A stretch of 64,000 nt of DNA from Planctomycetota bacterium (lineage in GTDB: Bacteria; Planctomycetota; UBA8108; UBA1146; JAJFFE01), in NCBI GenBank assembly GCA_021776775.1, contig JAJFFE010000303.1, forward strand, positions 10,342 through 74,341, given 5' to 3'. The stretch's first letter is position 1. Every line of letters begins with the position of its first letter. The position numbers and the translations under genes are program-made. Under the pieces are notes generated by a model. It did not search any database, was not told the DNA's origin, and worked only from the letters and a program-made list of their open reading frames with translations. Below are positions 1,918 to 61,858 of the stretch, in pieces.

Positions 1918-3276
1918 TCACTGTTTGACGAGAGTCTTCGGCCGGACCACGCGCCGCCGGCCTTCGACGCGTTCGATCGCGTGTAGAATGCGACGCCCTA
2001 GCTGCTCGTCGAGGCCGGGGAGTGCTTGTTTGATCAGCGTCGCGATGGTTTCGTCCGCCGCATCGTGCAGCGTGCCCGAGCCCGCTTCGGTCAGCCGTCG
2101 CCAGAAGTCACCCGGCCCGAACCCCGGCAGCCGTGCAATAACGAGCGAGACAGCGTGGATTTTCATCGTCTTCCACTGGCGGACAGTGGCGGCGGCGCGT
2201 TGGAGAACACCGGCGATCCGCTTGCTCTCCGGCGCCGCGTCAGCCACGAAGATCGCGGCGCGCGTCGCCTTCCGACGCCATTTCATACGGCCGTGACACA
2301 CCGCGCGCAGCGCCAAGTCGACTCGTTCGTTCGGCCCTCCGCCTTTGTCCGCGGAGATGCGACGCAAGAACATCTCGATTCGTTCCGCGTTGTCCGTTAG
2401 CGGCAGCGTGCTCTGGATCGTGTCGCGGTAGGTCACGGCGCCGACGCGAACGTCGCCGAGCAGCTCACGCGTGATGCGCGTCGCGTAGCGAATGTCTTTG
2501 ACTGCTTTGCCCAGGTGACTCTGCATGCTGCCCGTGCAGTCGATCGCCCACACCAGGTCGAGCGAAAGGGAGCGGCCCTCCCCGCCGAGCAGTCGGCGTT
2601 CCAGCTCTGTCACGGCAGTTCGCTTCGTCTTTCCCACTCCCGTGGCGCCACGCTTGGGTTCGCCGGACGCGCCGGGTTCCGCGTTGCCGCCCACGTTCGA
2701 TTCCTCGGGGATCGACTTACCGATCGGAAACTTCTCACGAACGCGCCACGTATCGGGGGTCTTCTGGAGCCAGTGCGGCATGCGGCCGGCGATTCGATCG
2801 AGACAGGTGCGGGCAGTGATGGACACGGGCGTCTCGGGCCCGCGTGTCCACTCGATGAGAAGTGCGGCGAGTCCGCGTCCTCCGAACCGCGCGAGATCCG
2901 TCGACTCGTGATGAAGCAGCGCTTCGACGGCCAGGGTACGTTCCCAAGAATGGTCGAGCGAAGGCATGGAGTCGCGAACGACGACGATCGACCACGGGTT
3001 GAGCATCGTGCCGAGGTGGGCAAGCAATGCGAGCGTTTGAATCTTCGCGCTGGGGTCGAGAGGATCAACGATGGCACTTCGGAGGCCGCGAAGTTCGCGT
3101 CCGAATGTTGGATCCCAAGGTGGATCGTTCGAGTCATCGGTCGCGTAGAGCGCGGGCGACGAAGCGCAGGTCGCAAAGAGCAACGCGAAGAGTACGCGTC
3201 GTGTCCAGCGAGCAGGTGAGAATTGGGCGGGTGAAGAGTGAGGGGGCGAGGAAGTGGCGCAGCTCATGGAAAGCAT
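1918..3276 (-). CDS. Secreted von Willebrand factor A (VWA) domain protein
   Basis: 452 aa with a hydrophobic N-terminal signal-like segment. MIDAS-like motif ..LVWAIDCTGSM.. is followed by a VWA-like alternation. Confidence 0.6.
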   Translation of the reverse strand: MLSMSCATSSPPHSSPAQFSPARWTRRVLFALLFATCASSPALYATDDSNDPPWDPTFGRELRGLRSAIVDPLDPSAKIQTLALLAHLGTMLNPWSIVVVRDSMPSLDHSWERTLAVEALLHHESTDLARFGGRGLAALLIEWTRGPETPVSITARTCLDRIAGRMPHWLQKTPDTWRVREKFPIGKSIPEESNVGGNAEPGASGEPKRGATGVGKTKRTAVTELERRLLGGEGRSLSLDLVWAIDCTGSMQSHLGKAVKDIRYATRITRELLGDVRVGAVTYRDTIQSTLPLTDNAERIEMFLRRISADKGGGPNERVDLALRAVCHGRMKWRRKATRAAIFVADAAPESKRIAGVLQRAAATVRQWKTMKIHAVSLVIARLPGFGPGDFWRRLTEAGSGTLHDAADETIATLIKQALPGLDEQLGRRILHAIERVEGRRRVVRPKTLVKQ

Positions 3277-4244: not shown

Positions 4245-5381
4245 TTAGTTGTTTGTGGATTGTCGAGCGGCGCACTCGACGATCTTGCGGTGCAAGCCGG
4301 GCAGCTTCCAGGCGTCGCCCACCTGAACGGTACGCGGGGCGGTTTGCTCGTTCGCCGTCGACGCCGGGATCGTGACGACGTGCACGCGCAGGCTGCGGTA
4401 GGTAATGCTGTGTTTGATCTCCGCTTGGTACGAGGCTCGGCCCAGTTCGAAGTCGAACTCCGATCGGACCAAGGCGCGTAGCTTCGTCGCGGCTTGGCGG
4501 GGATCGGGTGCGTCGTCCACGGGCCAGAGAGGCACACCCCACTGCGTCTTCAGGAATGGCGCGTCCTCCGCCGCGCGTCGAACCACGATTCCCGTCGGGG
4601 TCACGATCACGGCTGCCAGCCAGTGTTGGATCTCCGGCTTTCGTCGCTGACGAGGTGGTGGGAACGCCTCGGGTCGGCCGAGCTTGTTTGCGCGACAGCC
4701 AGACGCGATCGGGCAATCGCCGCAACCCGGTGCGCGCGGCGTGCACACCGTGGCGCCGAGTTCCATCATGGCTTGGTTGTGATCTCCTGGTTGCTCGTTG
4801 GGAAGTGCGATCCGAGCGGCCTCGCGCAGAAGTGTGTTCGAGTCGCCCTTCTTGGGGTCGCCTTCGAGTGTGAGATAGCGAGCGAGTACGCGCTCGACGT
4901 TGCCGTCGATCACGGGTACCGCGTGGTCGAACGCAATGCTGCCGATAGCTGCCGCCGTGTACTCGCCGATCCCCGGTAGCGATCGGAGCCCCGCCTCATC
5001 GTTGGGCAGTGCGCCGCCGTGATCTCTGACGACCTGTTGCGCCGCGACGCGAAGATTGCGTCCGCGGGAGTAGTAGCCCAGCCCAGCCCAGTACTCGAGC
5101 ACTTCGTCTTCGTCCGCTTCGGACAAACTGACGACGGTCGGGAACCGGCCCATGAACCGTTCGTAGTACGGAATCACGGTTTTGACCTGGGTTTGCTGTA
5201 GCATGATTTCCGAGATCCACACGCGATACGGATCTTGGTTTTCTCGCCAGGGAAGGTCACGATGCCGGACCGCGTACCACTCGTTCAGAGGGGTCGTGAT
5301 CGAACGAACGCGGTTGCGCTGCGATGGGGTGAGCTTACGATTCGAAGCGCGGCTGCTCATTGTCTTCAGATGACCCATCAC
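4245..5381 (-). CDS. mutY: A/G-specific adenine DNA glycosylase
   Basis: HhH-GPD core ..LPWRENQDPYRVWISEIMLQQTQVKTVIPYYERFMGRFPTV..GLGYYSRGRNL.., a 4Fe-4S Cys cluster (C..C..C..C) and a NUDIX-like C-terminal domain. The start may instead be ATG 5360. Confidence 0.9.
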   Translation of the reverse strand: MMGHLKTMSSRASNRKLTPSQRNRVRSITTPLNEWYAVRHRDLPWRENQDPYRVWISEIMLQQTQVKTVIPYYERFMGRFPTVVSLSEADEDEVLEYWAGLGYYSRGRNLRVAAQQVVRDHGGALPNDEAGLRSLPGIGEYTAAAIGSIAFDHAVPVIDGNVERVLARYLTLEGDPKKGDSNTLLREAARIALPNEQPGDHNQAMMELGATVCTPRAPGCGDCPIASGCRANKLGRPEAFPPPRQRRKPEIQHWLAAVIVTPTGIVVRRAAEDAPFLKTQWGVPLWPVDDAPDPRQAATKLRALVRSEFDFELGRASYQAEIKHSITYRSLRVHVVTIPASTANEQTAPRTVQVGDAWKLPGLHRKIVECAARQSTNN

Positions 5382-5398
5382 TCAACGACGGAGGTGCT

Positions 5399-5959
5399 AT
5401 GGCGTGGATCGAGCAGGTACCCGAAGACCGAGCCACTGGCAAGCTCGCGAAGATTTACGAAATGGCGAAAGGGCGTGCGGGTCGGGTCGCCAACATCCTC
5501 AAGATCATGTCGCTCCGGCCGGGCCCGCTGAGCACCTTCATGCGCTTGTACGTTCAGCTCATGAAGGAAGAGTCGACTATCAGTTTCGCCGACCGCGAGA
5601 TGGTGGCGGCAGTCACGTCCGAGGTAAACGGCTGTTTCTACTGAAAGCACTCGCACGGGGAGGATCTCCGTTCCGCGAGTGGCGACAATGAATTGGCCGA
5701 CGCCGTCATCCACGGCTGGCGCAGCCACGAGGCGTCCATGACGTCTCGACAGCGAGCACTCTGTGAGTACGCCGAGAAGCTGACTCGGAGCCCGTCGTCG
5801 ATGACGCCGGCCGATCTGGACGGTCTCCGTGCGGAGGGGCTCGATGACGGCGAGATTCTCGAGGTGGTGCACGTCATCGGGTACTTCAACCACATCAACC
5901 GGGTGGCCGACGCCTTGAGTGTCGATCCCGAGCCGTTCATGCCGACGACGTCCGACTGA
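5399..5959 (+). CDS. AhpD/carboxymuconolactone-decarboxylase-family peroxidase-related protein with in-frame TGA (candidate selenocysteine) at 5642-5644
   Basis: Track ORFs 5360..5644 and 5693..5959 are in the same frame, separated by a single TGA. ATG 5399 is preceded by GGAGG. The joined 186-aa product reads ..VTSEVNGCFY[TGA]KHSHGEDL.., and the family motif as I recall it is C-x-Y-C-x-x-H-H. Confidence 0.7.
5648..5681 (+). promoter_or_regulatory. SECIS-like stem-loop immediately downstream of the in-frame TGA
   Basis: Outer stem CACTCGC(5648-5654)/GCGAGTG(5675-5681). Inner stem ACGGGGA(5655-5661)/TCTCCGT(5665-5671) with one G-U pair, apical loop GGA and a 3-nt bulge. The loop lies about 18-20 nt 3' of the UGA. 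Confidence 0.55.
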
Positions 5960-6134
5960 GCGCTGTGCCCCAAGGGCTGTGCAGAACACGTCTTCCGGGG
6001 ATCGGCAGCGGTCCGACTCGGCCGGGGGCCCCGCAAATGGGTCGCGCGCCCCTACTTGTCCGTACCCGGACGGCCCGATAGACTTAGCGACGGTTGGAAC
6101 CCATCGTCCGAGCTCCCCGCCCTAAGGAGGGGCC

Positions 6135-7505
6135 TTGTCCCGTCCCAATAGCAGCAGCACGGATCGCAGTATCACGCACACTTCGAACACCGCTCACTCC
6201 AGTGTTGAGCCCATGACGTCGCGCGCGTTGGTCGATGAATTGTCGAGCGATGCTCCGCGCCTCGTCAGTCTCCTCAAGCGCGCCGTGCGTCGCCGCGGCG
6301 GTCTTGCGTTCGTCGAAGGTGCGACCTGGGGGTTACTCCTCGGGTTGACCGGTGCGCTTGTTCTCAAGGTGTACGAAAAATTGTTCTGGCCCGGCTGGGA
6401 TGCTACGACGTCATGGTCGTGGATCGGAGCCAGCGTCGGCGGTGCGGTACTGCTCGGCGCTATCGTCGCGTGGTTGTTCCGTCCGAAGGATCCGCTCCGC
6501 GCCGCGCTCGCCATCGAGGGTGAGTACGCTCTGAAAGAGCGCCTCTCGAGTATCGTCTTCCTCCGCAAATCTCGCGAGCACGTCGATCCCGATGCCGCCG
6601 CCGCCCTCGCTCGCGATGGTGACGAGTACGCCACTCGTGTCGATCTTCGACGAGCGCTTCCGTTTCGTCGGCCGCGTGCCGGGATCCCCGCCGCGTGCAT
6701 GGCGGTCGCCTTCGCGATCGCAGTGTTCCTTCCTCAATACGATGTCCTCGGTTCAGAAGAAGATCGCCAAGATATCGCCAAGGAAGAGAAGCGCGTCGAA
6801 GAAGCCCGCAAACGGCAAGACAAGCGCATCAAGAAGCTGCAAGAGAAAGCCAAGAAGGACAAGGTCAGCCCCAAGACCCAGAAGCTGCTCAACAAAATGA
6901 GCCACCGTCCTCCGGAGAGAAAGAACTCCGAGAAGCGACGGACGGCGAAGGGCGAAGTGAAGCGCCGCGAGCTGGCCGACATGGACAATCTCCGCAAGGA
7001 GGCGAAGGCGCTGCGCAACCGCGCCGAGATGAAGCAGCTCGACAAGTTTCTGAACAAGGTTCAAGCCGCCGGTCAGAAGATGCAGAGCCAAGAGGCGAAA
7101 CAGCTTGCCAAGGCGTTGCAGCAAGGTGATCTGTCGCAAGCGAGCGAGGCGCTGAAGAAGCTCGCCAAGAAGATCGCCGACGAGAAGAAGAAGGGCGGCC
7201 CGAAGAGCGAAGAGCTGAAGAAGCTCGAAGAAGATCTCGCGAAGCTCATGAAGAAGATGGACGGCGCGCCGAGCCTGGCGAAGCTCGCCGAATCCCTTGG
7301 CGACATGTCGAACATGAGCGGCACTGAGCTATCCGAAGCGCTGAGCCAAGCGGCGTCCGACATGAGTGAGCTCGAGCGCTTGATGCGCGAGCGCGACATT
7401 CTCGACAGCGCGCTTCAGGATATCGAAATGACCCAGGATGAACTCGCGCAGCTTCCCACCGAGTGGGAAGAACCGTGCGAACTCTGCCAGGCCGGCGGCA
7501 CCTGA
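6135..7505 (+). CDS. Membrane protein with long Lys/Glu-rich coiled-coil (conventional stop at TGA 7503-7505)
   Basis: TTG 6135 is preceded by AAGGAGG. Contains TM helices (ATWGLLLGLTGALVLKV, IGASVGGAVLLGAIVAWLF, ACMAVAFAIAVFL) and then ~230 aa of KE-rich heptad-like sequence. Ends ..EEPCELCQAGGT*. Confidence 0.65.
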   Translation: MSRPNSSSTDRSITHTSNTAHSSVEPMTSRALVDELSSDAPRLVSLLKRAVRRRGGLAFVEGATWGLLLGLTGALVLKVYEKLFWPGWDATTSWSWIGASVGGAVLLGAIVAWLFRPKDPLRAALAIEGEYALKERLSSIVFLRKSREHVDPDAAAALARDGDEYATRVDLRRALPFRRPRAGIPAACMAVAFAIAVFLPQYDVLGSEEDRQDIAKEEKRVEEARKRQDKRIKKLQEKAKKDKVSPKTQKLLNKMSHRPPERKNSEKRRTAKGEVKRRELADMDNLRKEAKALRNRAEMKQLDKFLNKVQAAGQKMQSQEAKQLAKALQQGDLSQASEALKKLAKKIADEKKKGGPKSEELKKLEEDLAKLMKKMDGAPSLAKLAESLGDMSNMSGTELSEALSQAASDMSELERLMRERDILDSALQDIEMTQDELAQLPTEWEEPCELCQAGGT

Positions 7506-7893: not shown

Positions 7894-8883
7894 GTGGGGC
7901 GACGCGACGTCGCCGCCTCTATCGCTCTGCGCGTTCTTCGGCTGTCCTGCAGCGTAGTTCTCGTGGCGTGTTCAGTGGCGTGCTCTTCCCGATCCAATGT
8001 CGAAGGTGTCGCTTCCGTGTCCGAGGTGGTCGCCTTCGGCGGCTCCGGTCGCGGCGAAGGCTACTTCCATCAACCGCGCGGCATCGAAGTCCTCTCCGAT
8101 GAATCGTGTGTCGTCATCGATCGCTCCGGCCGCGTGCAACGCTTCGGCCGCGACGGCAAAGTCATGACGTCGTGGATTCTGCCGCAGTGGCGAAACGGAC
8201 AACCGATCGATCTCTGCGTCACTCCTTGGGACACGCTGCTCGTCGCCGATACGCATTACTCGCGACTCCTCGAGTTCGATACGACCGGAGAGCTCGTTCA
8301 GATACTGCTCGAAGAGTGGGTCGTCCCCGGAGAGGACGCGGGGCTGAGCTTGGTGCGCGGCGTCTCGGTCGGCGCGGACAACGCCATCTACATCGCGGAC
8401 TACGGCACGGACGAGCGCGACCGCGTTCACCGATTCGAGCGTGATGGCACGTACAAGGGATCGTTTGGGCAGCGAGGGGACGGCGAGTTCGACCTAAACC
8501 GTCCGGAGGGGCTCGCCGTGGGGCGCGGCGGCGACGTCTACGTCGTCGATTGCGGCCATGACCGCGTCCTGCGATTTTCGGCGACCGGTGAACCGCTCGG
8601 ATCGTTCGGCGAGTCTGGCACCCGGCCCGGCCAGTTCTTGTTCCCGTTCGACATTGCCGTCGGCAGCGATGACTGCCTGTACGTGGTCGAGTATCGTGGC
8701 AACCGGGTTCAGCGATTCGATGCCGACGGCGAGTTCATCGACATGGTCGGCCACGCCGGACGTGAGTTGGTGGAGTTCGCGACTCCGCGTGGTATTGCTG
8801 TGCGACCTGACGCAGGGGGAGATCTCGTGTACGTGGCGGACACTAACAACCATCGTGTTCAACGCTTCCGGTGGGGGGGGTGA
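7894..8883 (+). CDS. NHL-repeat beta-propeller protein (secreted or lipoprotein-like)
   Basis: GTG 7894 lies 1 nt after the 7890-7892 stop. Contains repeated NHL-like units (..PRGIEVL.., ..VRGVSVGADNAIYIADYG..RVHRF.., ..PEGLAVGRGGDVYVVDCGHDRVLRF.., ..PFDIAVGSDDCLYVVEYRGNRVQRF.., ..PRGIAV..LVYVADTNNHRVQRF). Confidence 0.8.
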   Translation: MGRRDVAASIALRVLRLSCSVVLVACSVACSSRSNVEGVASVSEVVAFGGSGRGEGYFHQPRGIEVLSDESCVVIDRSGRVQRFGRDGKVMTSWILPQWRNGQPIDLCVTPWDTLLVADTHYSRLLEFDTTGELVQILLEEWVVPGEDAGLSLVRGVSVGADNAIYIADYGTDERDRVHRFERDGTYKGSFGQRGDGEFDLNRPEGLAVGRGGDVYVVDCGHDRVLRFSATGEPLGSFGESGTRPGQFLFPFDIAVGSDDCLYVVEYRGNRVQRFDADGEFIDMVGHAGRELVEFATPRGIAVRPDAGGDLVYVADTNNHRVQRFRWGG

Positions 8884-8885
8884 CC

Positions 8886-11777
8886 ATGGAGAACTTTCCG
8901 TTTGAGTTCGGTCGTCCGTGGTGGCTGCTCGCCGCGATCCCCGCTCTGTGGTGGACGTTCGCCATTGCCAAACGCAGCCTCGCCGGGCAGGCCCCGGGCT
9001 GGGCGCGGTTCGCGCTGATCCTCCGCGTGTTCCTGGTGATCTTGCTCGTCGCCGCGCTCGCCGACGTTCGTTCATCTCTCAAGGGTGAGGGGTTGACGGT
9101 CTTCTTCCTTCTGGATCGATCCGCTTCGATTCCCATGGAGTATTCCGACAACGCGTATCGCTGGATCGAAGAGCGTGCGAAGGACATCGACCCCGACGAT
9201 CGCGTCGGGTTGATCGTTTACGGCCGCGACGCCGGGATCGAGCGCGATGCGGCGCCGCGGTTGCGCATGACGCACATCGAAAGCGTCATCGATCGCGACG
9301 CTACCAATACCGAAGGCGCGCTCCTTCTTGCTCAGGCCGCGCTCAGCTCCTCGAACGCGACCGGCGGCAAGCGGGTCGTGGTGATTTCGGACGGGAACTC
9401 GAACGTCGGCGACGAAGTGCTCGCCGCGCGCAACTTGGCATTGTCAGGCGTCGTCGTCGACGTCCTGCCGATCGACTTTTCGTACCCGCAAGAGATCCTG
9501 ATCGACAGCTTGGGCATTCCGGCGGAAGTACACCCCGAAGAGCCCTACGTCGTCAGTGTTGTCGTCCATTCCGAGGTGGCAACGCGGGCCGAGGTGCACC
9601 TGTACGAGAACGACGAGAAGGTCGAGACCAAAGCTGTCGACTTGGTCAAGGGCAAGACCCGCGTCCAGTTCCCGCGTCAGCACACCGAAGCGGGCCGGTA
9701 TCGCTACGAGGCGCGTCTCTTCGAGCTGGGAGACTCGCCCGTCGATACGCTGGCGCGCAACAACGTCGCGTACGGGTTCACGGTCATTCGTGGCGAGTCT
9801 CGGGTCCTGTTCGTCGGGCACGAAGAAGAGCATCGACCGCTGCTCGACGCGTTGGCGTCATCGCGGATCGCTGTCGAAGTGGTCGCGCCCGACAACGTTC
9901 CACAAGACTCCGAGATGTATTTCTTCTACGACAGCATCATTCTTGCGAACGTCGCGGCGTACGAATTGGGCGTCGATACCCAACGGCTGCTGCACGGTGT
10001 GGTGAAGAATCTCGGCGTCGGGTTGATCATGGTCGGCGGTCCCGATTCGTTCGGCGCCGGGGGCTATCGCGGAACGCAAATCGAAAAGCTACTTCCGGTC
10101 GATATGGAAGTGAAGCAGCGCAAAACCATTCCCAACGGTGCGCTCGTCATGATCCTCCACACCTGTGAGTTCCAAAACGGAAACATGTGGGCGAAGCGCA
10201 TCGCGGTGCGCGCCGTCGAAACGTTGACGCGCGAAGACTACGTCGGCGTGTTGAGTTGGGGAGGCATGGGCGGGGACACTTGGGGCGTTCCGTTTCAGCA
10301 GGCGAAAGACAAGGCCGGAATCGCCAATCTGATTCGCAAGCTGCAACCCGCGGACATGCAATCCTTCGTGCCCACCATGAACCTTGGCTTCAAGGCGCTC
10401 AAGAACGCACCCGCGGTTCAGAAGCACATGATCATCATCTCGGATGGCGACCCTATCCCGCCGAACAAGGCCGCGATGCAACAGTTCGTAGACGAGAAGA
10501 TCTCGGTCACGACAATCTGCATCGGTCCACACGGCGCCGGCGATACCGGCAAGATGAAGAAGATCGCGCTCGATACCGGGGGGCGCTATTACTTCGTCGA
10601 AGACCCGGAAGAGTTGCCCGGCATCTTCATGCGCGAAGCGTTGCACGTCCGACGCAACTTGATCAACGAAGAAACGTTCACCCCGGCCATCGTGATCGAG
10701 ACGCCGCCGATTCGCGGAATCGCCGACATCGGCTTCCCGCTGCTGCACGGTTACGTGATCACGTCACCCAAGCCGACCGCCGAGATTGCTCTGGTGAGTC
10801 ATGAACCGCACCACGACCCGATCCTCGCCCACTGGCGGTACGGCCTCGCACGCACCGCCGCCGTGACGGCCGACAGCGGTGGACGCTGGTCCAGCGATTG
10901 GGTCGGGTGGGCTGGCTACGAACCGTTCTGGGCGCAACTCATCCGTTACGTCTCGAAGAAGGGGGGCGACGAACTCTTCCGAGTCGAACGAACCATCGAA
11001 GGCGATCGTGGCCGAATCATTGTCGATGCCATCGACGCCGAAGGGTCGTACCTCGACAACCTCGAGATCGGCGGACGCCTTCTCGACCCAAAGATGGGTG
11101 AGCAAGAGGTTTCGTTCCAGCAGATCGGACCGGGCCGTTACGAGACCCAGTTCGCCGCGCGCCGTTCTGGGTCGTACCTGTTGTCGCTCGAATACAAAGA
11201 CGAAACCGGCACCGAGGGCCACCACCAAACCGGCATCAACGTCTCGTACTCGCCAGAGTTTCGACACCTCAAGAGTGACCGCGACAAGTTGGAAGAGCTA
11301 GCGGCCGCCGCCCAAGGTCGAGTCCTCAGCTACCAAGACGACCCCTTCGACCCCAACGTGCCCTACCACTATCAGCGCACCCCATTGTGGGAGATGATCC
11401 TCAACCTGGTCGTCCTGCTCTTCTTCATCGACGTCTTCTGTCGCCGCGTCATGCTCTCGCTCGAGCCCGCCAAACGCGCCGTAGCGTGGCTGCGCCTGCG
11501 TCGACAACCGAAAGAGGCCGAGTCCACCGAAACCATGACCGCCCTCCTCCAGCGCCACCAAACAGTGCGAACCGAAACCACCAAACGCGAACGACCAAAA
11601 GAGATTCCAACCTTCGATCCCACCGAACACGCCGAGGGAACTCCGCAAGCAGGCCCCTCCGACGTGGCGAAGGCGCCGCCCAAGCCAACCCCCGACGCTG
11701 CGCCGAAACCAACGAGCTTTACGGATCGGCTGCTGCAGGCGAAGAAGAAAGCACGCGAAGATCTCGACGACGAGTGA
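8886..11777 (+). CDS. BatA-N-terminal (double-TM) / VWA / glutamine-amidotransferase-like / second VWA multidomain membrane protein
   Basis: ATG 8886 follows the NHL stop. MENFPFEFGRPWWLLAAIPALWW is an aerotolerance-regulator N-terminal motif. First VWA has FFLLDRSAS and the second has ..IIISDGDP... The central segment is class-I GATase-like (..LIMVGGPDSFGAGGY..). There is a C-terminal TM helix and a charged tail. Confidence 0.75.
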   Translation: MENFPFEFGRPWWLLAAIPALWWTFAIAKRSLAGQAPGWARFALILRVFLVILLVAALADVRSSLKGEGLTVFFLLDRSASIPMEYSDNAYRWIEERAKDIDPDDRVGLIVYGRDAGIERDAAPRLRMTHIESVIDRDATNTEGALLLAQAALSSSNATGGKRVVVISDGNSNVGDEVLAARNLALSGVVVDVLPIDFSYPQEILIDSLGIPAEVHPEEPYVVSVVVHSEVATRAEVHLYENDEKVETKAVDLVKGKTRVQFPRQHTEAGRYRYEARLFELGDSPVDTLARNNVAYGFTVIRGESRVLFVGHEEEHRPLLDALASSRIAVEVVAPDNVPQDSEMYFFYDSIILANVAAYELGVDTQRLLHGVVKNLGVGLIMVGGPDSFGAGGYRGTQIEKLLPVDMEVKQRKTIPNGALVMILHTCEFQNGNMWAKRIAVRAVETLTREDYVGVLSWGGMGGDTWGVPFQQAKDKAGIANLIRKLQPADMQSFVPTMNLGFKALKNAPAVQKHMIIISDGDPIPPNKAAMQQFVDEKISVTTICIGPHGAGDTGKMKKIALDTGGRYYFVEDPEELPGIFMREALHVRRNLINEETFTPAIVIETPPIRGIADIGFPLLHGYVITSPKPTAEIALVSHEPHHDPILAHWRYGLARTAAVTADSGGRWSSDWVGWAGYEPFWAQLIRYVSKKGGDELFRVERTIEGDRGRIIVDAIDAEGSYLDNLEIGGRLLDPKMGEQEVSFQQIGPGRYETQFAARRSGSYLLSLEYKDETGTEGHHQTGINVSYSPEFRHLKSDRDKLEELAAAAQGRVLSYQDDPFDPNVPYHYQRTPLWEMILNLVVLLFFIDVFCRRVMLSLEPAKRAVAWLRLRRQPKEAESTETMTALLQRHQTVRTETTKRERPKEIPTFDPTEHAEGTPQAGPSDVAKAPPKPTPDAAPKPTSFTDRLLQAKKKAREDLDDE

Positions 11778-12163
11778 TCTCGCCGGAGCCCTCCCTCCTG
11801 CCGACTAGGGCCCGCGCAGCGACAATGATTTCCACCGGTTGAGGTAGGCGCGTCGTCACTTCCACCTCACAGGTTGCGTTGCACCCCAGGGGCGCCGATC
11901 GGAGGCGCTACCTATGACAGTGGGATCAATGTTCGACGGATTCACAACTCAGGTGCTCCCATGTTGAACAGCCTTGTTGCGTACCTCGTCATCGGGTCTT
12001 AATCCTGGCGTTCGCCAGTCGGGGTTGGCGAGCGCGGCGGAGCCCTTCTTAGTTTTCACCGTAGGTGTCACCGTGCCGCGTCCTTTGGTAGCATCAGACG
12101 CAATCACCGGTGCTGCCTCCCGGCAACTGAGCCTCGATTTTGGACGGACAAACTTCAACGACC

Positions 12164-12751
12164 ATGAACAACGGTAGAGGACTTAACGCCTTCACTCTTG
12201 GATTGCTGATCTTCCTCGGCGCGGTCGGGATCTTCTGGTTTGCCTCGGCCGTTAGGACCGCTAGACGCAAATCGAACCGTGCCTTTTGCATCAGCCACCT
12301 CAAGCTGATCGGTGCGCTGTGCATCTCACGCGCCGACGATCAAGACGGTGTGTTCCCATACGATCCTTCGCCTACTCCCAGCGCCCTCAACGCTTTTCAG
12401 GTTCTGGTCGACGAAAGTGATGACTTCAATACGAGACTACTGTGCTCGCCAGCCCATTTCGATACGCCGGCAGTTCCGAGCTCGTCGGGATCTTATGTTC
12501 TCGGCGCTTCCAATGTGAGCTATGCCTATCGAGGAGCGGCCACGGCGGTCGACAGTCGGTCCAGCACGATCCTAGCTTCCAATGACACGTATCTCGGCGC
12601 TCCCAACGAGGGAGAGCAGCCCGAAGGCCACGAGGGCGGGGTCAACGTCTTGATGGTAACGGGGGAAGCGTACTTCCTTCCGCTCGATCAACTCGCTTCC
12701 GGTCGGAACTTCCCGGAGGGTCTCGTGGACAACTACGGCTCCACCAAGTGA
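12164..12751 (+). CDS. Prepilin-like N-terminus / DUF1559 (H-X9-DG-like) family protein, short form
   Basis: N-terminal ..GLNAFTLGLLIFLGAVGIFWF.. is a degenerate prepilin-type helix without the canonical Glu. C-terminal ..HEGGVNVLMVTGEAYFLP.. resembles the H-X9-DG motif of planctomycete DUF1559 proteins. Confidence 0.55.
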   Translation: MNNGRGLNAFTLGLLIFLGAVGIFWFASAVRTARRKSNRAFCISHLKLIGALCISRADDQDGVFPYDPSPTPSALNAFQVLVDESDDFNTRLLCSPAHFDTPAVPSSSGSYVLGASNVSYAYRGAATAVDSRSSTILASNDTYLGAPNEGEQPEGHEGGVNVLMVTGEAYFLPLDQLASGRNFPEGLVDNYGSTK

Positions 12752-12799
12752 AGCCTCGTGGTCCAACTCGGCGTTACCCGTAGGCACTGGTCGTCAGCA

Positions 12800-13750
12800 T
12801 CAAGGGCAGCCGACGAAGTCCTCGCACGCCAAAGCGGTCGGCGTCGGATCCGGTCCACAGATCACGAACGGATCTGGCGGCGGCGGACCTGACGTGAAGA
12901 GATGGGCGAGAGTGAAGACGGGGTCGGAGATGTCGAACGCGTCGTCGTCATTGGCGTCGCACGCGAGCGGGCAATCGATCGTCGTCGCGCCGATGAAGAG
13001 TTGGTCGAGAGCAGTGACGGCGTCCGCCACGTTCACCGATCCGTCGGCGTTGCAATCGGCGCGACGAAACGGCGGGACGTCGGTGAGCACACCGTCGATC
13101 GAGAAGCTCGCGGCGCCTTGCCAGGTCGTTTCGAACGCGAAGGGATCGTCGACCAAGAACGAGACTCGAGCCGTGATCTGAATGGAAATGAACTGCCCGA
13201 GCTCGATGGGGAGTTGAATGCCCACAGGTTGCGAACCTGACAGCGGTAGAGAGATCGTGCCATCGAAGGACTCGATCAGGATCGTGACACTCGCGTCCGT
13301 TCCGTCGAGATCGAGCGTGCCGTTCAACGTCAGTAACCCAGTCGCTTCGGGTTCGAAGTAGAGATAGAAGAAGCTTCGCGATTCGATATCGGCGTGCGCG
13401 CCTTGGGCGAACTCTCCCGCCTCGAACGTGAAGCTCGTCGATCCCATCGCGCTGAACGAAGACGATTCGATGATCGACGCCTGCTCGGCGACGACGCCAA
13501 CCGTGTAGTCGGGGTCCATCGCGCCGCCGACGAGCTGTTCGTCGAACACGGTGCCGGCAATGAGCAGCGCTTCTTCAGCAACTCCCAGCTGTTGCATCGA
13601 GTTCGAGATCCACTCGAACTCCACGCGTTGGTCGGAGTCGTCGATGATGAAGCTCTGGGACTGGGCGTTGACCATCGACGGCATTAAAGCAGCCGTAAGC
13701 AACGCCACGATGGTTGCGCCACGGATCGTGTTCGTCGGACGTTCGACCAT
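12800..13750 (-). CDS. Secreted protein with C-terminal dockerin-like (EF-hand-type) Cys-rich domain
   Basis: Signal peptide MVERPTNTIRGATIVALLTAALMPSMVNAQS. C-terminal ..CNADGSVNVADAVTALDQLF..CDANDDDAFDISDPVFTLAHLF..C..C..CP. Confidence 0.65.
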   Translation of the reverse strand: MVERPTNTIRGATIVALLTAALMPSMVNAQSQSFIIDDSDQRVEFEWISNSMQQLGVAEEALLIAGTVFDEQLVGGAMDPDYTVGVVAEQASIIESSSFSAMGSTSFTFEAGEFAQGAHADIESRSFFYLYFEPEATGLLTLNGTLDLDGTDASVTILIESFDGTISLPLSGSQPVGIQLPIELGQFISIQITARVSFLVDDPFAFETTWQGAASFSIDGVLTDVPPFRRADCNADGSVNVADAVTALDQLFIGATTIDCPLACDANDDDAFDISDPVFTLAHLFTSGPPPPDPFVICGPDPTPTALACEDFVGCP

Positions 13751-14198
13751 TGAGAGGCTCCCTTCGTCTGGAGGGGCGACATCGTGACACGTGGTGGGGG
13801 CCGGGGGAAGAAGAGTGCCGCACCGAGAGCGGGCGGCTGGCCCGTTGGTGCCGGGCTGGGTGTCACCGGGTCACATCCGCACTACAATCCACGCTTTCCC
13901 AGCCGTCGCTCGGCGGCTGAGCTTCAACGTCAGGCGGCTTGTCAGGTGTCAGCGACTATTGAAACGCTATCCACCATTGTTGTCGTCCTTACCGGCAGCT
14001 ACTTTCTAGCTCTCGCTGCCGTCGCGCTACTCGTTCGATCGGCCGCTCGCATGACCGGAAAGTCCGCGTTCTCGCACGCGAAAAAAACGGAGTAAGGTCG
14101 AGGCCGTCTCCGACTCCTTGGTGGGTCCGAGGCGACCCGATCGCCTCTCGAGTTCATACCGACGGAACCAAAGCCCGTTCAGACCCAGAGGATCGACC

Positions 14199-15044
14199 GT
14201 GTACACAACAGAACGCTTCTCCCGAGCCGCTCGGATTGCGCTCGGCCTTCTCGCTGTCGGGTTCTCGTCCTTAGCCACCGAATCGCGAGCACAGTCATCG
14301 TTCGAGTTCCAGGCTCCGAACGTTGCCTTCACTCTTCAGCCCGGCGTCTTCGACTTCTCGCTGGGTTTCTCGATCGAACAGGTGGCGGGCCCGTCCGCAG
14401 GAACCCTGGGGTTCGGAATGGGTGTCGCCCATGATCCGTCCTTGCTATCGATCCTGTCGGTCGACGAGGGTCCGGCGCTCGACGTGCTACCGTTTCCGAC
14501 TGCATTCTTCACTACCGTTATCGACGCCGACGGGTGGGCCGCCAGCGCTGTCTACACAGTCCTCGGCTCTGCTCTGATTTCGTTCCCCGTGCCGACCGAA
14601 GCCGTCACGGTCACATATCGAGCGGGCGAATCGGGCTCCGTCGACCCGACCGACTCCTCACCGCTCACCTGGACGAATGACATCGGATTACCACCCATCA
14701 TGAATCTCGTCGTCGTTGGCGGTTTCATGATCTTTCCGGACTTCGTCGACGGATTGGTGGCCTTTGCCGAGTTCACGTACGTTCGTGGCGACATGAACAA
14801 CGACGGCAACATCGACTTGTCCGACGTCTTCACTGCCGAAGACTATCTCTTCCTCGGCGGCCCGACCCCAGATTGCCTCGTGGCACTCGATGCCAACGCC
14901 GACACGTCGATCGACATCGCCGACCTGATCTACCTGCTCAGCTACATGTTCATCGGAGGCGATGACCCCCCGTCGCCGTTTCCCCGTTGCGGCGCGGCTT
15001 TGCCTTCGGACACTTTCGAGTGTGAAGAGCACCTGTGCCCATGA
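14199..15044 (+). CDS. Secreted cohesin-like plus dockerin-like domain protein (paralogous C-terminus to 12800..13750)
   Basis: GTG 14199 is preceded by GAGGA, followed by the signal peptide ..RIALGLLAVGFSSLATESRAQS. Contains a cohesin-like beta-sandwich pattern (..GFGMGVAHDPSLLSILSVDEGPAL..). C-terminal ..GDMNNDGNIDLSDVF..LDANADTSIDIADLIYLLSYMF..C..C..CP. Confidence 0.65.
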   Translation: MYTTERFSRAARIALGLLAVGFSSLATESRAQSSFEFQAPNVAFTLQPGVFDFSLGFSIEQVAGPSAGTLGFGMGVAHDPSLLSILSVDEGPALDVLPFPTAFFTTVIDADGWAASAVYTVLGSALISFPVPTEAVTVTYRAGESGSVDPTDSSPLTWTNDIGLPPIMNLVVVGGFMIFPDFVDGLVAFAEFTYVRGDMNNDGNIDLSDVFTAEDYLFLGGPTPDCLVALDANADTSIDIADLIYLLSYMFIGGDDPPSPFPRCGAALPSDTFECEEHLCP

Positions 15045-15266
15045 GCCGAAGCCGACTTTGGCCCGGACCGATCAATCTCTCTAAGAACCATCTGGAGAAC
15101 GACACCATCAAGGCGTATCCGATGGACGGGCTCGAGGAAGAGCAACCGCCGCACCGCTTCTTACCGCTGTCGAAGGTGAAGTAAGGGAGCCGGAACTCGA
15201 ACAACGGGATCAGCCTCGAGCTCCAGGGGACTCAGTCGAGTCGTTGCGCGATGGGTTCGCGACTGC

Positions 15267-17033
15267 CTAGCTCGCTAGGTCGAGCATGACTTGCAGCCGG
15301 ACGAAGTCGACGTCGGCGATGACGATGTTGATCGCGCCGCCTTCACTGAACGAGTAGCTGCGGCGCCGGGCGCTGATCACGACCGTGTCGCCATCGATCT
15401 GAGCGCGGCCGCCGATCTTTCGAAACGGCAAGAAACCGCTGACGTTGAACTCGTCGAACTCGATCTCCATTCCGCTGGGGTTGATCCGGACCACCTTGGC
15501 GGGATGGGTCTCTCCAATGTGGGGCTCGAGGTACTGACACACTTTGAGATCGAAGACCGCTCGCTCGACCATTTCGGCCAAGCTTGCCTGCATGGTGCTG
15601 TGGCTCGCCTTGATGTTGAGGTCGTCGACGAATGCGCCGGCGCGAAGTTCCTTCTCGGCCTCGTCGGGACGAGACTGGATCGCGTGCAACCACCGGTGCA
15701 CGATCAGATCGGGGTAGCGTCGGATCGGTGATGTGAAGTGAAGGTACGCTTCGCGCGCCAGGCCCCAGTGTTTGGCCACGTCCTCATGGTCCTTCACTTG
15801 GTAGTCCGCGCGTTCGACCAGTCCCATGATGCGGCCGATCATCGCCTCGGCGTTTTGGCGACTGCGTACCGCACGGACCAGGCTACCGATATCGCGACCG
15901 GTGAGGCGCTCCTTCCGCGGCACGCGCACGCGGAGCTTCTCGAGCATGGCCAGTACGCCTTCGATCTCTTCCGGATCTTTCTCGGGGTGCACTCGGTAGA
16001 TGGTCGGCAACCCGCGCTCGCGAAAGGTGTCGCCCACGGCTTGGTTGGCGGCGAGCGCCGTCTCTTCGATCAGCGTTTGTGAGAAGTAGTTGGTCGCGAT
16101 CTCGACTCCGACGACCTCGTGCTTTTCGTTGAACACGAACTTGCGCTCTCGAGACTGCATGCGCAGCGAGCCGGCCTGATCGCGAAGGAGCTGTTGAGTG
16201 CGCGTCCATCGTTGCAGCTCGCGGAGCGTCGATTCGAGATGCGCGATCTTTGCGGTCTCGGCGTTTTCGTTACCGTCGAGCAGCTCTTGGACCAGCCGGT
16301 AGGTACAGCGGTACTTGCTGCGGATGACGCTCTTGGCCATGTGCGAGTCGACGCGCTTGCCGTCCGGCGTGAATTCCATGAACACGGAGAAGGCCAGACG
16401 ATCGCGATCGGGCACCAGCGAGCAGAGGTTGTTCGAGAGTTTCTCGGGCAGCATCGGCACGACTTGGTCGGCGACGTAGATGCTCGTGCCCCGTTCCATC
16501 GCCTCATCGTCGAGCGGCGTCCCCGGCGTCACGTAGTGACCGACGTCCGCGATGTGCACGCCGAGCTCGACGTTGCCGCCGGGAAGTCGGTTCATAGAGA
16601 TCGCGTCGTCGTAGTCCTTGGCGTCTGCACCGTCGATCGTGAAGATCATCTGGTCGCGCAAGTCGAGCCGCTCGGCGAATTCGCTCGGGTCGGGATCATC
16701 GGGCAGCGCCGCCACCTGCTTGGCGACGTCCGCCGGAAACACCGTACGGACGCGAAACGACTTGAGGAGCTGCATCTCCTCGGAGTCGATGTTCCGGTAC
16801 GGCGGCGGGCCGTGCTCCATCGGGCCGAACGCCCGTGGTCGACGACGAAGACCGACATCGATCTGGGTCTCCAGCTCGAGATCGACCTCTTCCTCGCCGG
16901 CGCGCTTGAACGTCCAACCGGGCTCCGCCACGGGCTCGTCCGGGGTTTCGCCCTCGACGCCCATCGCCTTCGCGAGGTCGGCGAAGCTGCCAAAGCTCTT
17001 AGACTTCTTGGGTGACTTCTTCTTGTCGGCCAT
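15267..17033 (-). CDS. rnr: Ribonuclease R / RNase II-family 3'-5' exoribonuclease
   Basis: RNB catalytic motifs ..DAKDYDDAIS..LGVHIADVGHYV..ERGTSIYVADQVVPMLPEKLSNNLCSL.., plus a C-terminal S1-like domain. ATG 17033 (MADKKKSPKK..) is preferred over the 680-aa track ORF, whose first 92 aa are Arg/Pro-rich noise. Confidence 0.85.
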   Translation of the reverse strand: MADKKKSPKKSKSFGSFADLAKAMGVEGETPDEPVAEPGWTFKRAGEEEVDLELETQIDVGLRRRPRAFGPMEHGPPPYRNIDSEEMQLLKSFRVRTVFPADVAKQVAALPDDPDPSEFAERLDLRDQMIFTIDGADAKDYDDAISMNRLPGGNVELGVHIADVGHYVTPGTPLDDEAMERGTSIYVADQVVPMLPEKLSNNLCSLVPDRDRLAFSVFMEFTPDGKRVDSHMAKSVIRSKYRCTYRLVQELLDGNENAETAKIAHLESTLRELQRWTRTQQLLRDQAGSLRMQSRERKFVFNEKHEVVGVEIATNYFSQTLIEETALAANQAVGDTFRERGLPTIYRVHPEKDPEEIEGVLAMLEKLRVRVPRKERLTGRDIGSLVRAVRSRQNAEAMIGRIMGLVERADYQVKDHEDVAKHWGLAREAYLHFTSPIRRYPDLIVHRWLHAIQSRPDEAEKELRAGAFVDDLNIKASHSTMQASLAEMVERAVFDLKVCQYLEPHIGETHPAKVVRINPSGMEIEFDEFNVSGFLPFRKIGGRAQIDGDTVVISARRRSYSFSEGGAINIVIADVDFVRLQVMLDLAS

Positions 17034-17375
17034 GGCTCCTATTGTGCGCGGTCGACGCCTTGGGGGACACCGGAGTTTCTCCGGTCGGGCCGCGAATCCT
17101 GGTCCCGTGGGGCCGCTCGCCCACCGTCGGGAACACCGCTGGGCTTGCCGACCGGGTCCTACGAACCGGACCTTCGAACCCCGTGCCGTCCGTCGGACGT
17201 CACCGCCCCGATTCGGTACTCGTCGCCCACGTGGCGTGTCGCAAAGACCGTTCTGCTCCAGCGTCTCGTGTTTCGGGTGCTTCCCGATGGTGCCGCGTCG
17301 CTCGTGCAATTCGAGAACGATTCGGGAACCATCGCGAGTCTCCGGCGAGCAGTTATGCAGTCACGAAGAAACTCG

Positions 17376-17666
17376 ATGGAACGGCTTATGGTCGACTGCG
17401 GATACTGGGGGTGCTCGTCGGATGCTTCCTGGAAGGCGAAGCGGTGCTGGTGCTCGGCGATTTCGCGGCTCACCGCGGATATCTCGAACTCGGGGGGCGG
17501 TTGCGCGTTCGCCGGCTCTCTCATCGGGGATCAGCTCGCCTTCACCGAAGACAGTGCCCTGCGTAAGAATAGCTCGTCACGCTTGGTCTCCCTCAGATCC
17601 GGGGATATGCTGCAGCAGATATTGTTGCTTGGCAACTTGCAGACAACCAGAGGGGACTCTTCATGA
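17376..17666 (+). pseudogene. DedA-family membrane protein remnant with two frameshifts at G-runs and a truncated C-terminus
   Basis: DedA-like pieces lie in alternating frames: MERLMVDCGYWG (frame of 17145 ORF), VLVGCFLEGEAVLVLGDFAAHRGYLEL (frame of 17012 ORF), then ..FAGSLIGDQLAF.. (first frame again). Switch points are at G5 17407-17411 and G6 17492-17497. The ORF ends at 17666, about 100 aa short of a typical DedA. Confidence 0.5.
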
Positions 17667-18972: not shown

Positions 18973-21900
18973 TCACCCCGCGCCGGCCGTCGCGCACTTC
19001 TTCAGTAGCTTCTTGCCGCGCTTCTCGAGCTTCTTGCCGCCGAGTTCGAGCCCCTTGCCGTACTCGCGGATCGCGGCGGCGATGTCGCCGGAACCGATGG
19101 CGGCTTGGTCGGCGATGAACTCTCCGAACGCTTGCACGAGGACGCCGAGTCCGGTCAGGGTGCCGCCGGCGATGCAGGTGCTCACCAGGACATACTGTAT
19201 GGCGACGGTCTCGCCCGATGGGTCGCTGAATACCCCGGGGTTGTTGCGACCGAAGTCGTAGCCGAACGGGTTGCGGAGGTCTTCGGCGAGGAATCGGCCG
19301 AGTCCCGGTTCGTAGTAGCGGGCGCGGAAGTAGCCGAGACCGGTCAACGCGTCGAACTCGCGAGCGTTGAAACGAAGATCGTTGTCGAACCCAGGGTTCG
19401 ACTCTTCGAGCGTGGTGCCGAAGCTGTCGTACACGTAGTGGTTGAGCACTGCGCCGTCGTCACCCACCACGTCACGAACGGTGCCGACTGCGTCCAAGAG
19501 GAACCAACGCGTCGTGCCCGCGTTCTCACTGGCGAGGACGCCGTCCACCGAACGTGAGTACAGCCGGCGGTCGCGCACGGTTAGCGTCTCGTCGATGACG
19601 AGGATCGGGTTGCGATCGTCGTAGATGTAGTGGCGCTCTTCCGTACCCGTGACCTTGGCAATGCGATGATTCAGCGCGTCGTATACATAAGCCTCGGAGT
19701 CGAGCACGGTCTTGGCAGAGTCGCGGAGTTCGACGTGGATCATGCGCGAGCGGTGGTCGTACGTGAAGTAAAGGGAGTCACCGGTCGACTTCTCTTCGCG
19801 ACGAGAGACGTTGCCTTCGCCGTCGTACTCGTAGAGGTAGGTGTCGTCTTCGAGGAGACGGCTGCCGTCGTACGAGTACGAGCTGCTCAAGTGGCTGGCC
19901 AGCCGATTGCCGGCCGAGTCGTAGCTGTACCATTCGTCATCTTGAACACCGCCCGTCGGGTGAATGGCGCTCAGGAGGCGATTCAGTCCGTCGTACGCGT
20001 ACTCGTGCAGACCCTCGGCGTCGGCGAGAGTGAGGATGTTTCCGAGAGCGTCGCGCCCGTAGGCAAGTGTGCTCACGACGGTTCCGTCTGACACGCGACT
20101 GTTCACGATATCCGAGATGCTTTGCTGGCAGCTACCGCACTGGTAGTCGAAGGTCGAGTCGACCACTCCAAGCGTGCCGGCGAGGTCGCTCGAGCGCAGG
20201 ACGGTGCGCAGGAGATCCGCCGCGTCGTACTCGAAGTCGACGCGCTTTTCGTTGATCGTTCCGGCGACCGCCTTCGGCGACAGTTCTTGGGTGGCGGTCG
20301 CGAGCCGGTCGAGGGCGTCGTACTGGTAGGTGGTCAATCCGTCGAACGAGTCGAGGACGTGCGTCAAGTTGCCCGTTCCATCGTAACCGGGTTGCAGCGT
20401 GCCGAGGCCATCGGTGTAGCCGTAGGTCACCACCGACTTGGGTCCAGAGTTCGGGATGGTCGTGACGCTCCGAAGTCGACCTGTGTCCCAGAACTCGTAT
20501 TGAGTTTCCGCGTTCGGTCCTTCGGTCGAGAGCAACTGACCGGCGGCCGTGTACGCGAAGGTGATGACCGTCGGTGGCACTGTGTCCCACGTCTCGGTGA
20601 TCACCCGACCCAACTCGTCGTAGGTGAAGTCTGCCCGGTTGCCGTTGCGGTCGATCCGGAACAGCAAGCGCCCGGCGGTGTCGTACTCGACCACGTTGGC
20701 GAAACCGTACGGGTCGACGTAGCCGGTCAGGCTTCCCAGGGCGTCGTAGTTGAACAGCCAGTGTGCCGCGTCGGTGTCTCCGGGGAACAACACGTCGCTC
20801 AACTTGCCGAACTTGTTGTCGTAACGAAGCTCGGTGGTGCCGTTGAGAGAGTTGTGAATGAAGAGCAGCTGGCAGTCATCATTGTACTCGCGGGTTTCGA
20901 CGTTGCCCTGCGGATCGGTCGTCATCACCACCTCGTTACACTCGTTGTACGTGTAGTAGGTGGTTCCGATGTCATCGGTTCGCGCAAGCAGGTTCCCGCT
21001 CTCGTCGAACGCTCGCGTGACCAGCGAACCGTCCGCATAGAGGGTTTCGATCTCGTTTCCATCTTCGTCGTAGGTGAGTTCCGTATCGACGAAGTTGCCG
21101 AGGTCGGCGGGATTGTCGAGGTAGCGGCGTTCGCGCACCACATTGCCGAGCGGATCGATCCACAGATCGACGCGGTAGCCTCGACCATTGACGATGGTCT
21201 GGAACTCGAGCGTCGGGTCGAGCGCGAACTCCGTGCAGCCGGGACCGGCCGGCGTGTCGAGATCTCCGTCGATGGTGGCGGGATCTCCAGTAGCGTCGCA
21301 CTGACCGATCATTCGACCGTCGTCGTCGAACACCGTGCGGATGGTCGGCCGCCCCAGCGGGTCTTCGATGCGCGTCAGGTAGTGACCGAACAGTGGGTTC
21401 TCGTAGTAGAAGGTCGTGGTTTCATCCGCGGCGTTGTTAAACGCGGTCAAGTTGCCGGTGGCATCGTACTGGTAGGTGGCCTCGCGCGCCGGAACGCGGT
21501 CGAGCGGATCGGGGTCTGGTTCGCTGATCCGCGTGATGCGGCCGTCGGAGTCGCGATCGAACAAGAGCGCTACCCCGGTCGGTGCGCCGCCGGGAGCGAA
21601 CTGCGTGAGCCCCGAAGGGGAGACCTCGATGCGGTTGCCGACGGTGTCCTCGACTTCGATCAAACCGTCGAACTCGTCGATCACGTATTTCACGCCTTCT
21701 TTTGTCGTGAGTCGGAAGCGATCTGGGTTGAAGGGAACCAGGGGGAACGTTGGGTACACGAGCGTCGGCGGAATGATCGGCAAGAACGAGAGCGTGAAGA
21801 TCAGGTCATCGATCGCTTCGAGCGTATCGGTCACCCCCGGGTCGGGTTCGAAGTACGGGATACGGCCAAAGCCCATGGGTAGGCTGACCGGCAAGAAGGT

Positions 21901-26709: not shown

Positions 26710-26902
26710 GCCCTTTCGGGCAAGACGCTGGCCCCTTCTTAGGCATAGGGCGAGTAACAGGGCCGGTCGACCATGGATTCCGGACAGCACGACAACCTCC
26801 GCGTACTTTCGAGCGTTGGGTTTCGAAGATCGGCCGAGAGACTCAGGCAGCGGCCCGGCCGATCGCGAGCGAGATCCGATCGCAAGTGCGATGAAGGCGC
26901 GG

Positions 26903-57358: not shown

Positions 57359-57452
57359 AGCCCGTATCTCTTCAACGCGAGGGGAGTCACTTGGCACTCG
57401 CATTGTAGCCGACGACGTCTCGCTTGGGTCAGCTCCTCAACCGCCCCGATCT

Positions 57453-58277: not shown

Positions 58278-58415
58278 GAACCTTGCACCTCTGCGTATTG
58301 AGCCTCGGTGTACGGGGGCAGTCTTAACGAAAACCGATCGGTCACGCCCTGAAAAATGGTGAGTCTGCCGTGACTTGTGCCGAGTTACCCAGCCAACGCG
58401 TTGATCTAAAATGGC

Positions 58416-59618: not shown

Positions 59619-59627
59619 GAACCTGGC

Positions 59628-61844: not shown

Positions 61845-61858
61845 GGGGCAGTCCGATC

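Follow-up and report, generated by a model that had tools for sequence, protein, structure and literature searches.

A predicted selenocysteine-encoding AhpD-like gene in an uncultured Planctomycetota-like bacterium

AhpD-like proteins in which selenocysteine (Sec) takes the place of the second cysteine of a CxxC motif were reported from the Sargasso Sea in 2005 as a new selenoprotein family (CxxU, COG2128) of 27 sequences (PMC1088965). In the GOS survey, "AhpD-like 1" was among the most abundant families, with 299 sequences (PMC2398784), and a 2026 review of prokaryotic selenoproteins lists an "AhpD-like protein, TIGR01926, CxxU" (PMC13188914). These three sources bear out the statement of the first-pass annotation that such proteins are already in the literature. 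Among the cysteine-containing homologues, DR1765 of Deinococcus radiodurans provides a functional reference: its knock-out is sensitive to H2O2, and complementation requires the cysteines of the CxxC motif (PMC8945050).

Here we describe a gene of this type at positions 5399-5959 of a 64-kb stretch of DNA (below, the window). This is very probably a true AhpD-like selenoprotein gene, with Sec standing for the second cysteine of the CxxC motif (C79-F-Y-U82). The gene shares with the described AhpD-like CxxU family the same TIGR01926 assignment, the CxxU motif, Sec at the second cysteine position, and a hairpin with a G-containing loop after the UGA codon. Nothing essential differs; the window copy comes from an uncultured Planctomycetota-like organism and adjoins a divergent mutY-like gene. 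The biology is not new, as Sec-for-Cys in the AhpD-like redox center has been known since 2005 and the window gene fits the listed entry. The assignment corrects an annotation that would otherwise yield two fragments or a truncated protein, and it implies that the organism probably uses selenocysteine.

The gene and its product

On the forward strand, translation of 5399-5959 gives a single frame of 187 codons that is interrupted once, by the TGA at 5642-5644 (codon 82), and ends with a true stop, also TGA, at 5957-5959. The mechanical open reading frames 5360..5644 and 5693..5959, which had been proposed to form one 186-residue protein starting at ATG 5399, are indeed the two halves of this frame, and the joined product consists of 186 residues with the predicted Sec82 included (81 + U + 104). 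The start codon is preceded by a Shine-Dalgarno-like GGAGG, read from the sequence at 5390..5394 of the same strand; the element is present as described earlier, but its spacing from the ATG is 4 nt and not 6 nt. The N-terminus MAWIEQV is common to the gene and its homologues. GC3 equals 0.80 before the TGA and 0.83 after it, both halves having the coding G+C pattern of the long genes of the window. The delineation of the complete CDS thus draws on translation, matches to TIGR01926, the Pfam CMD domain and PDB entries, and GC3. An antisense open reading frame at 5378..5989 is probably a shadow ORF of this G+C-rich gene, both homology and the GC3 values favoring the plus-strand frame. Consensus scans of 5150-6300 for promoters and terminators gave no match.

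As stated in the first-pass annotation, TGA otherwise acts as a true stop in the window, where it terminates 26 of the 44 open frames of at least 300 codons, this gene counted in. Thus, the recoding would be local, and the genetic code is not reassigned. A screen of the window for further selenoproteins, based on TGA junctions with coding G+C on both sides, returned only this gene and same-frame neighboring genes.

For family scoring, cysteine was written at codon 82 of the joined protein. The match to NCBIfam TIGR01926 ("peroxidase-related enzyme") reaches 157.5 bits (cut-off 81.8) and is nearly complete, with residues 3-179 corresponding to profile positions 2-177 of 178. Residues 46-104 match Pfam CMD (PF02627) with 32.7 bits (gathering threshold 23), and nearly full-length matches are found in PDB to 2OYO (Deinococcus geothermalis; E = 4.7e-36) and 6K40 (Deinococcus radiodurans DR1765; E = 3.5e-35). 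These profile and structure matches clearly assign the predicted product to the AhpD-like "peroxidase-related enzyme" family (TIGR01926, COG2128, CMD/AhpD fold).

The sequence around the internal stop reads E-V-N-G-C79-F-Y-[TGA82]-K-H-S-H86-G-E-D-L-R, and the segment NRCLYCAVSHG of the solved structures aligns with NGCFY-U-KHSHG. The TGA column is occupied by cysteine in 2OYO, 6K40, and 2PFX. Full-length homologues have CRYC, CHYC, CYYC, or CDYC at the motif, and some distant ones have CxYS, with serine at the column. The alignments to homologues and structures therefore put the TGA at the second cysteine of the CxxC motif, as had been suspected. The motif given at that stage, N-x-C-x-Y-C-x-x-H-H, placed this cysteine properly but misplaced the histidine, as the homologues have N-x-C-x-Y-C-x-x-x-H. 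The motif N-x-C-x-Y-C-x-x-x-H-G of 2OYO and DR1765 is aligned with the window protein; unlike the window gene, both have cysteine at the TGA column, carry no SECIS, and need no Sec machinery.

Four active-site positions, E67, C79, U82, and H86, are invariant in the alignment of Sec forms and aligned in the PDB matches. Their codons on the plus strand are GAG at 5597..5599 for Glu67, TGT at 5633..5635 for Cys79, which is the first residue of the C-x-x-U motif and corresponds to the first cysteine of CxxC in 2OYO and 6K40, the TGA itself for the predicted Sec82, and CAC at 5654..5656 for His86, at position U+4, where amino acid identity is 100%.

Two neighboring families can be distinguished from that of the window protein. 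The canonical AhpD profile TIGR00777 gives 17.3 bits (cut-off 191.95) over the active-site stretch only, and NF041238 ("AhpD_rel_CFYUT") gives 73.9 bits (cut-off 175) over profile positions 151-339 of 357, that is, its C-terminal half. As both scores are below the cut-offs, the protein belongs to neither family. NF041238, the "hypothetical protein 1" of the Sargasso Sea, resembles it in the C-F-Y-U core and in a related C-terminal domain; it differs in having some 150 additional N-terminal residues, which the window protein lacks.

Conservation of the TGA codon and of gene order

At this exact column, some 100 homologous loci representing at least eight phyla have TGA, and none of them has TAA or TAG. 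A first genome scan yielded 27 loci. In 17 of these the column holds a stop codon, which is TGA in all 17; they come from metagenome-assembled genomes (MAGs) labelled Planctomycetota, Acidobacteriota, Gemmatimonadota, and "Proteobacteria". TGA was also confirmed at the column in three further loci (L030, L033, and L034). A second scan with a profile of Sec forms detected more than 569 relatives, and all of the best 80 loci examined have TGA at the column; this set adds Verrucomicrobiota, Chloroflexota, Myxococcota, Poribacteria, and Actinomycetota. One locus (L035) duplicates another (L004), leaving about 100 independent ones. Among the nearest relatives, no sense codon was observed at the column.

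Conservation extends beyond the TGA. Amino acid identity amounts to 0.48-0.72 after it (codons 121-180), compared with 0.44-0.59 before it, and the residues H86, D89, and R91 just downstream are invariant. The codon that immediately follows the TGA varies among AAG, ACG, ATC, GTG, CTT, CGG, and GAG; hence, no restart codon is conserved.

The closest loci are 59-67% identical and mostly come from MAGs labelled Planctomycetota. They share with the window the gene order of a divergent mutY-like gene, the gene in question, a coiled-coil protein gene, and an NHL-repeat protein gene. Thus, the orthologues are not two-piece pseudogenes, an outcome that would have spoken against the original proposal: about 100 loci have TGA at the same column, the in-frame sequence is conserved on either side of it, and the closest loci share synteny. 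Taken together, the conserved TGA, the conserved downstream frame, and the synteny are hard to reconcile with a pseudogene, a two-gene arrangement, or a sequencing error.

The divergent neighbor, an HhH-GPD glycosylase at 4245..5204 of the minus strand (Pfam HhH-GPD, 70 bits; start at 5204 according to the gene call in L032), is not part of the selenoprotein gene. It is also present in five related loci (L001 and L003-L006). This conserved pairing of the selenoprotein gene with mutY has no effect on the verdict about the former.

The hairpin downstream of the TGA codon

A minimum free energy fold pairs 5649-5661 with 5665-5680 in a predicted SECIS-like stem-loop at 5649..5680 of the plus strand. 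Its 13 bp enclose a GGA loop (5662-5664) and are interrupted by a bulge of 3 nt (5672-5674); the lower stem is formed by 5649-5654 and 5675-5680. The hairpin reported in the first-pass annotation, a 14-bp stem-loop at 5648-5681, is thus reproduced by the predicted fold, with slightly different limits. Taken alone, the hairpin is within chance for 62% G+C, as its z-score relative to dinucleotide shuffles is -1.33 and an equally good fold is reached by 18 of 200 shuffles. Against synonymous-codon shuffles that keep the protein and the codon usage of the gene, it has z = -2.5 (p ~0.02). As single-sequence folding is within chance, the weight of the hairpin comes from its conservation.

The conserved part is a 17-nt upper minihelix, ACGGGGA-GGA-UCUCCGU, at 5655..5671 of the plus strand. 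With its start 10 nt downstream of the UGA, it has the GGA apical loop (5662-5664) at positions +21 to +23. In 12 of the 19 sequences of this hairpin class (class A), which represent several phyla, the minihelix is letter-identical. Across the class, 97.7% of the cells are paired, compared with 29-62% when the partner columns are slid. The observed changes are one compensatory replacement of C-G by U-A (L050) and six of G-U by A-U; as little varies, the covariation support within class A is thin. Conservation here is forced in part by the conserved HGEDLR peptide. Three of the codons by which the minihelix encodes H-G-E-D-L-R are minor ones: Gly is specified by GGG (17% of its codons), Asp by GAT (31%), and Arg by CGT (16%). 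Under the codon usage of the window, the exact codon string has a joint probability of 0.0016.

A second, large class (class B) has the form GACCUC-N6-GAGGUC with the loop at +28, and 97% of its cells are paired. In this class three pairs have changed on both sides (GAU...AUC, CUG...CAG), and the covariation score was reached by none of 500 shuffles. A third class is represented by GACUUC-GGUCU-GGAGUC. A fixed-register lower stem was considered for the hairpin class of the window and ruled out, as the lower stems of the relatives differ in both sequence and pairing register.

Following the description of a stem-loop just past the UGA whose small apical loop contains G (PMC1088965), we called a structure SECIS-like if it had 6 bp or more and a loop of 3-8 nt that contains G and starts 14-40 nt from the U. 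Such structures follow the UGA in 75 of 95 sequences (79%), compared with 29-57% at six control sites in the same genes, and the loop starts cluster at +21 and +28. Across the family, folding energy is only modestly shifted downstream of the UGA (mean z of -0.65 vs. -0.03 to -0.33 at the controls); the hairpin criterion and the pair counts told more than this measure. Synonymous codon identity reaches its maximum, 0.62, immediately downstream of the UGA, as compared with 0.39-0.55 elsewhere. The conservation of a hairpin after the UGA among relatives agrees with the bacterial SECIS geometry that had been claimed for this site. A scan of the window against Rfam matched no family.

The minimal SECIS of E. 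coli fdhF is a 17-nt minihelix located 11 nt after the UGA, with G23 and U24 in the loop and a bulged U17. The candidate element of the window is similar in having a 17-nt minihelix 10 nt after the UGA and loop G residues at +21 and +22. It differs in lacking a bulged U in the upper stem, in having a GGA loop in place of GGUC, and in its unrelated sequence.

We also observed that the different SECIS registers are built from codons of the active-site helix: HGEDLR (loop at +21), DLRxEV (loop at +28), and DFGxES. Some amino acid replacements follow the RNA pairing, namely Val/Ile with GAC/GAU, Glu/Gln with CUC/CUG, and Arg/His with CAC/CAU.

Selenocysteine machinery, alternative readings, and predicted activity

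Searches of the 64-kb window by tblastn, with SelA, SelB, and SelD of E. coli as queries, detected no selA, selB, or selD. No tRNA-Sec was found in it either; ARAGORN predicted no tRNA gene at all, and there was no Rfam match. Examination of 10-kb flanks of the best 80 loci from the second scan revealed sel genes 1-9 kb from the TGA-form gene in three of them. The first comes from a Phycisphaerales MAG (L075), where selD (12191-13240), selB (TIGR00475, 361 bits), selA (TIGR00474, 506 bits), and tRNA-Sec (17430-17526) come in this order after the TGA-form gene (10001-10537). The part of this selD at 12278-13240 scores 334 bits against TIGR00476, and the gene itself contains an in-frame TGA (12242) in the context G-S-C-A-G-[TGA]-A-G-K. 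The other two loci, from Actinomycetes (L063) and Thermoleophilia (L112), have selA, selB, and tRNA-Sec within ~9 kb of the TGA-form gene. A genome scan with the SelA of the Phycisphaerales MAG yielded five loci, none of them from the MAGs closest to the window. As sel genes are seen only in relatives, it is from these relatives that we infer Sec decoding in this organism, and comparison of sequences suggests that Sec is probably inserted at codon 82. As a separate observation, the TGA-form gene adjoins a sel operon in MAGs of both Phycisphaerales and Actinomycetota, which does not affect the verdict on the window gene.

One alternative is that the gene is a relic. The Sec machinery could have been lost, or the TGA could be a recent nonsense mutation, leaving a fragment of 81 residues as the sole product while the remainder of the gene decays. 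The window without sel genes or tRNA-Sec would fit such a history, as would the patchy occurrence of the Sec trait in Planctomycetes, some cultured members of which have the full machinery (PMC4807772). However, the 104 codons downstream of the TGA are intact and retain the coding G+C signature together with every family-invariant residue. The 17-nt hairpin is letter-perfect in spite of its minor codons. The presence of the same TGA in all ~100 relatives means that it is ancestral and not a new mutation. We therefore regard decay of the gene as very improbable.

Another alternative concerns the fate of the codon in a gene that is still expressed. The TGA could be read through without selenium by a near-cognate Trp or Cys tRNA, or two polypeptides could be made, an N-terminal 81-mer and a re-initiated C-terminal piece. 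Both variants have an apparent basis in existing gene calls, some of which give a 103-residue C-terminal protein right after the TGA or tryptophan at the TGA itself. Splitting of the gene by automated annotation, which the first-pass annotation had predicted, is already seen in the Logan contig of the same sequence, with calls of 81 and 52 residues. Many homologue entries in the protein collection are 103-residue fragments that start one codon after the Sec column; in a circular 4.99-Mb contig (P0007), for instance, an 81-codon call is followed by TGA-GTG and then by a 103-codon call. Three homologue entries have "W" at the column, and both of the two that were checked proved to be TGA translated with a wrong genetic code. 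The C-terminal fragments and the false tryptophan entries indicate that the family is systematically mis-annotated in metagenome-derived data.

The "W" and "M" residues are artefacts of gene calling, the underlying codons being TGA followed by GTG, ACG, and others. No start codon is conserved after the TGA, and re-initiation at TTG 5693, the earliest in-frame start that the window offers there, would lose the invariant H86, D89, and R91. TGA is a common true stop in the window, and sel operons adjoin the gene in three relatives. In addition, the site is a redox cysteine column, a classic location of Sec. On these grounds, selenium-free decoding and a two-piece product can be given very little credence. 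A sequencing or assembly error that replaced a true TGC or TGT by TGA, for which a one-base difference would suffice, has a negligible probability, given that the same TGA is present in ~100 independent assemblies of relatives and that the Logan assembly of run SRR15505515, though it may rest on the same reads, is identical across 5381-5980.

If codon 82 is decoded as Sec, the UGA at 5642-5644 would be read by Sec-tRNA(Sec) delivered by SelB. The latter would be held on the mRNA by the hairpin 10 nt downstream, that is, by the minihelix 5655-5671 with its G-rich apical loop, and translation would go on to the stop at 5957-5959.

The hairpins and the machinery together raise a broader possibility. 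FdhA has been proposed as the anchor of the Sec trait in Proteobacteria. By analogy, the AhpD-like selenoprotein might be an "anchor" by which Planctomycetota, Acidobacteriota, and Chloroflexota retain the Sec trait. This reading draws on the rebuilding of the SECIS in at least three registers, the replacements that track RNA pairing over the needs of the protein, the adjacency of sel operons, and the Sec form of all of the best 80 matches, but at present we consider it doubtful.

As to the activity of the product, a comparison can be made with AhpD of M. tuberculosis. The window protein has the same spacing E-x11-C-x-x-[C/U]-x3-H, which by analogy makes a dithiol or thiol-selenol relay likely, although it scores under the TIGR00777 cut-off and belongs to a different subfamily. 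In the weak match to TIGR00777, residues 60-98 correspond to profile positions 111-149, an offset of 51. By this offset, E67, C79, U82, and H86 would be the counterparts of Glu118, Cys130, Cys133, and His137 of M. tuberculosis AhpD. Cys133 is the reactive residue of that enzyme, so that Sec82 would hold the nucleophilic position, as Sec commonly does in selenoenzymes.

On this basis, the product is predicted to be a thiol-selenol oxidoreductase in which Sec82, at the position of Cys133 and flanked by the invariant Glu67 and His86, would form a selenenylsulfide with Cys79, while electrons would pass to a peroxiredoxin-type partner or directly to peroxide. Near the selenoprotein gene, no gene for an AhpC, peroxiredoxin, or lipoamide partner is evident. 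The H2O2 sensitivity of the DR1765 knock-out and the need for the CxxC cysteines in its complementation make a role in peroxide defense plausible, by analogy, for the Sec form as well.

Selenocysteine machinery beside AhpD-like genes

The AhpD-like genes of some relatives are located close to the genes for selenocysteine (Sec) incorporation. In the Phycisphaerales MAG locus L075 (contig JABDLI010000238.1, region 10001-17526), a complete selD-selB-selA-tRNA-Sec cluster is found 1.7 kb downstream of an AhpD-like gene with TGA at the Sec column. In two Actinomycetota MAGs, L063 (6087-13482) and L112 (934-13999), selA, selB, and tRNA-Sec are situated within approximately 9 kb of the AhpD-like copy. 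The L075 selD gene (12191-13240) contains its own in-frame TGA at 12242-12244, within the motif G-S-C-A-G-[TGA]-A-G-K. Because this TGA occupies the active-site Cys/Sec position of selenophosphate synthetase, the L075 SelD is itself a predicted selenoprotein.

Hairpin pairing and protein sequence

In the two alignments of the post-UGA hairpin region (A4 and A5, which cover the 54 nt following the UGA in loci L011-L114), compensatory changes entail amino-acid replacements: (i) GAC/GUC to GAU/AUC, giving Val to Ile; (ii) CUC/GAG to CUG/CAG, giving Glu to Gln; and (iii) CAC/CGU to CAU/CAU, giving Arg to His. Judging from these aligned sequences, the protein sequence beside the active site appears to be shaped by RNA pairing of the hairpin.

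Irregular copies and misannotated entries

In the public protein collection, the AhpD-like family is represented mostly by 103-aa C-terminal fragments or by translations that erroneously place Trp at the Sec position (P0001-P0003 and P0007-P0046; loci L033, L034, and L030, checked at the DNA level). The false Trp results from reading TGA with code 4, and the P0001 translation also runs through its true TGA stop. Other irregularities are observed in the genomic copies. In two Marinacidobacterales MAGs (L017 and L025), the frame is lost soon after the Sec region; these losses look like frameshifts, possibly resulting from long-read assembly errors rather than marking real pseudogenes. In the MAG P01_B01_bin.70, one of two contigs (L002 and L027) stops just past the AhpD-like gene, and the other opens with the last 35 codons of the gene, at 86% identity to the window, which points to a break in the assembly at this locus or to a second gene copy there.

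Other genes in the window

The selenoprotein gene (5399-5959, plus strand) is divergent from a mutY-like HhH-GPD glycosylase gene (4245-5204, minus strand), with a gap of approximately 194 bp; the divergent pair is retained in five related MAGs (L001 and L003-L006). Oxidative damage is a theme common to both genes. The right end of the window (approximately 57400-64000, both strands; also L031) contains a Bat-like (aerotolerance-type) cluster encoding a MoxR-type AAA ATPase along with a DUF58 protein and BatA/VWA proteins. Further VWA proteins are encoded at 1918-3276 and 8871-11777, and a very large ORF of 2605 codons occupies 18973-26790 on the minus strand.
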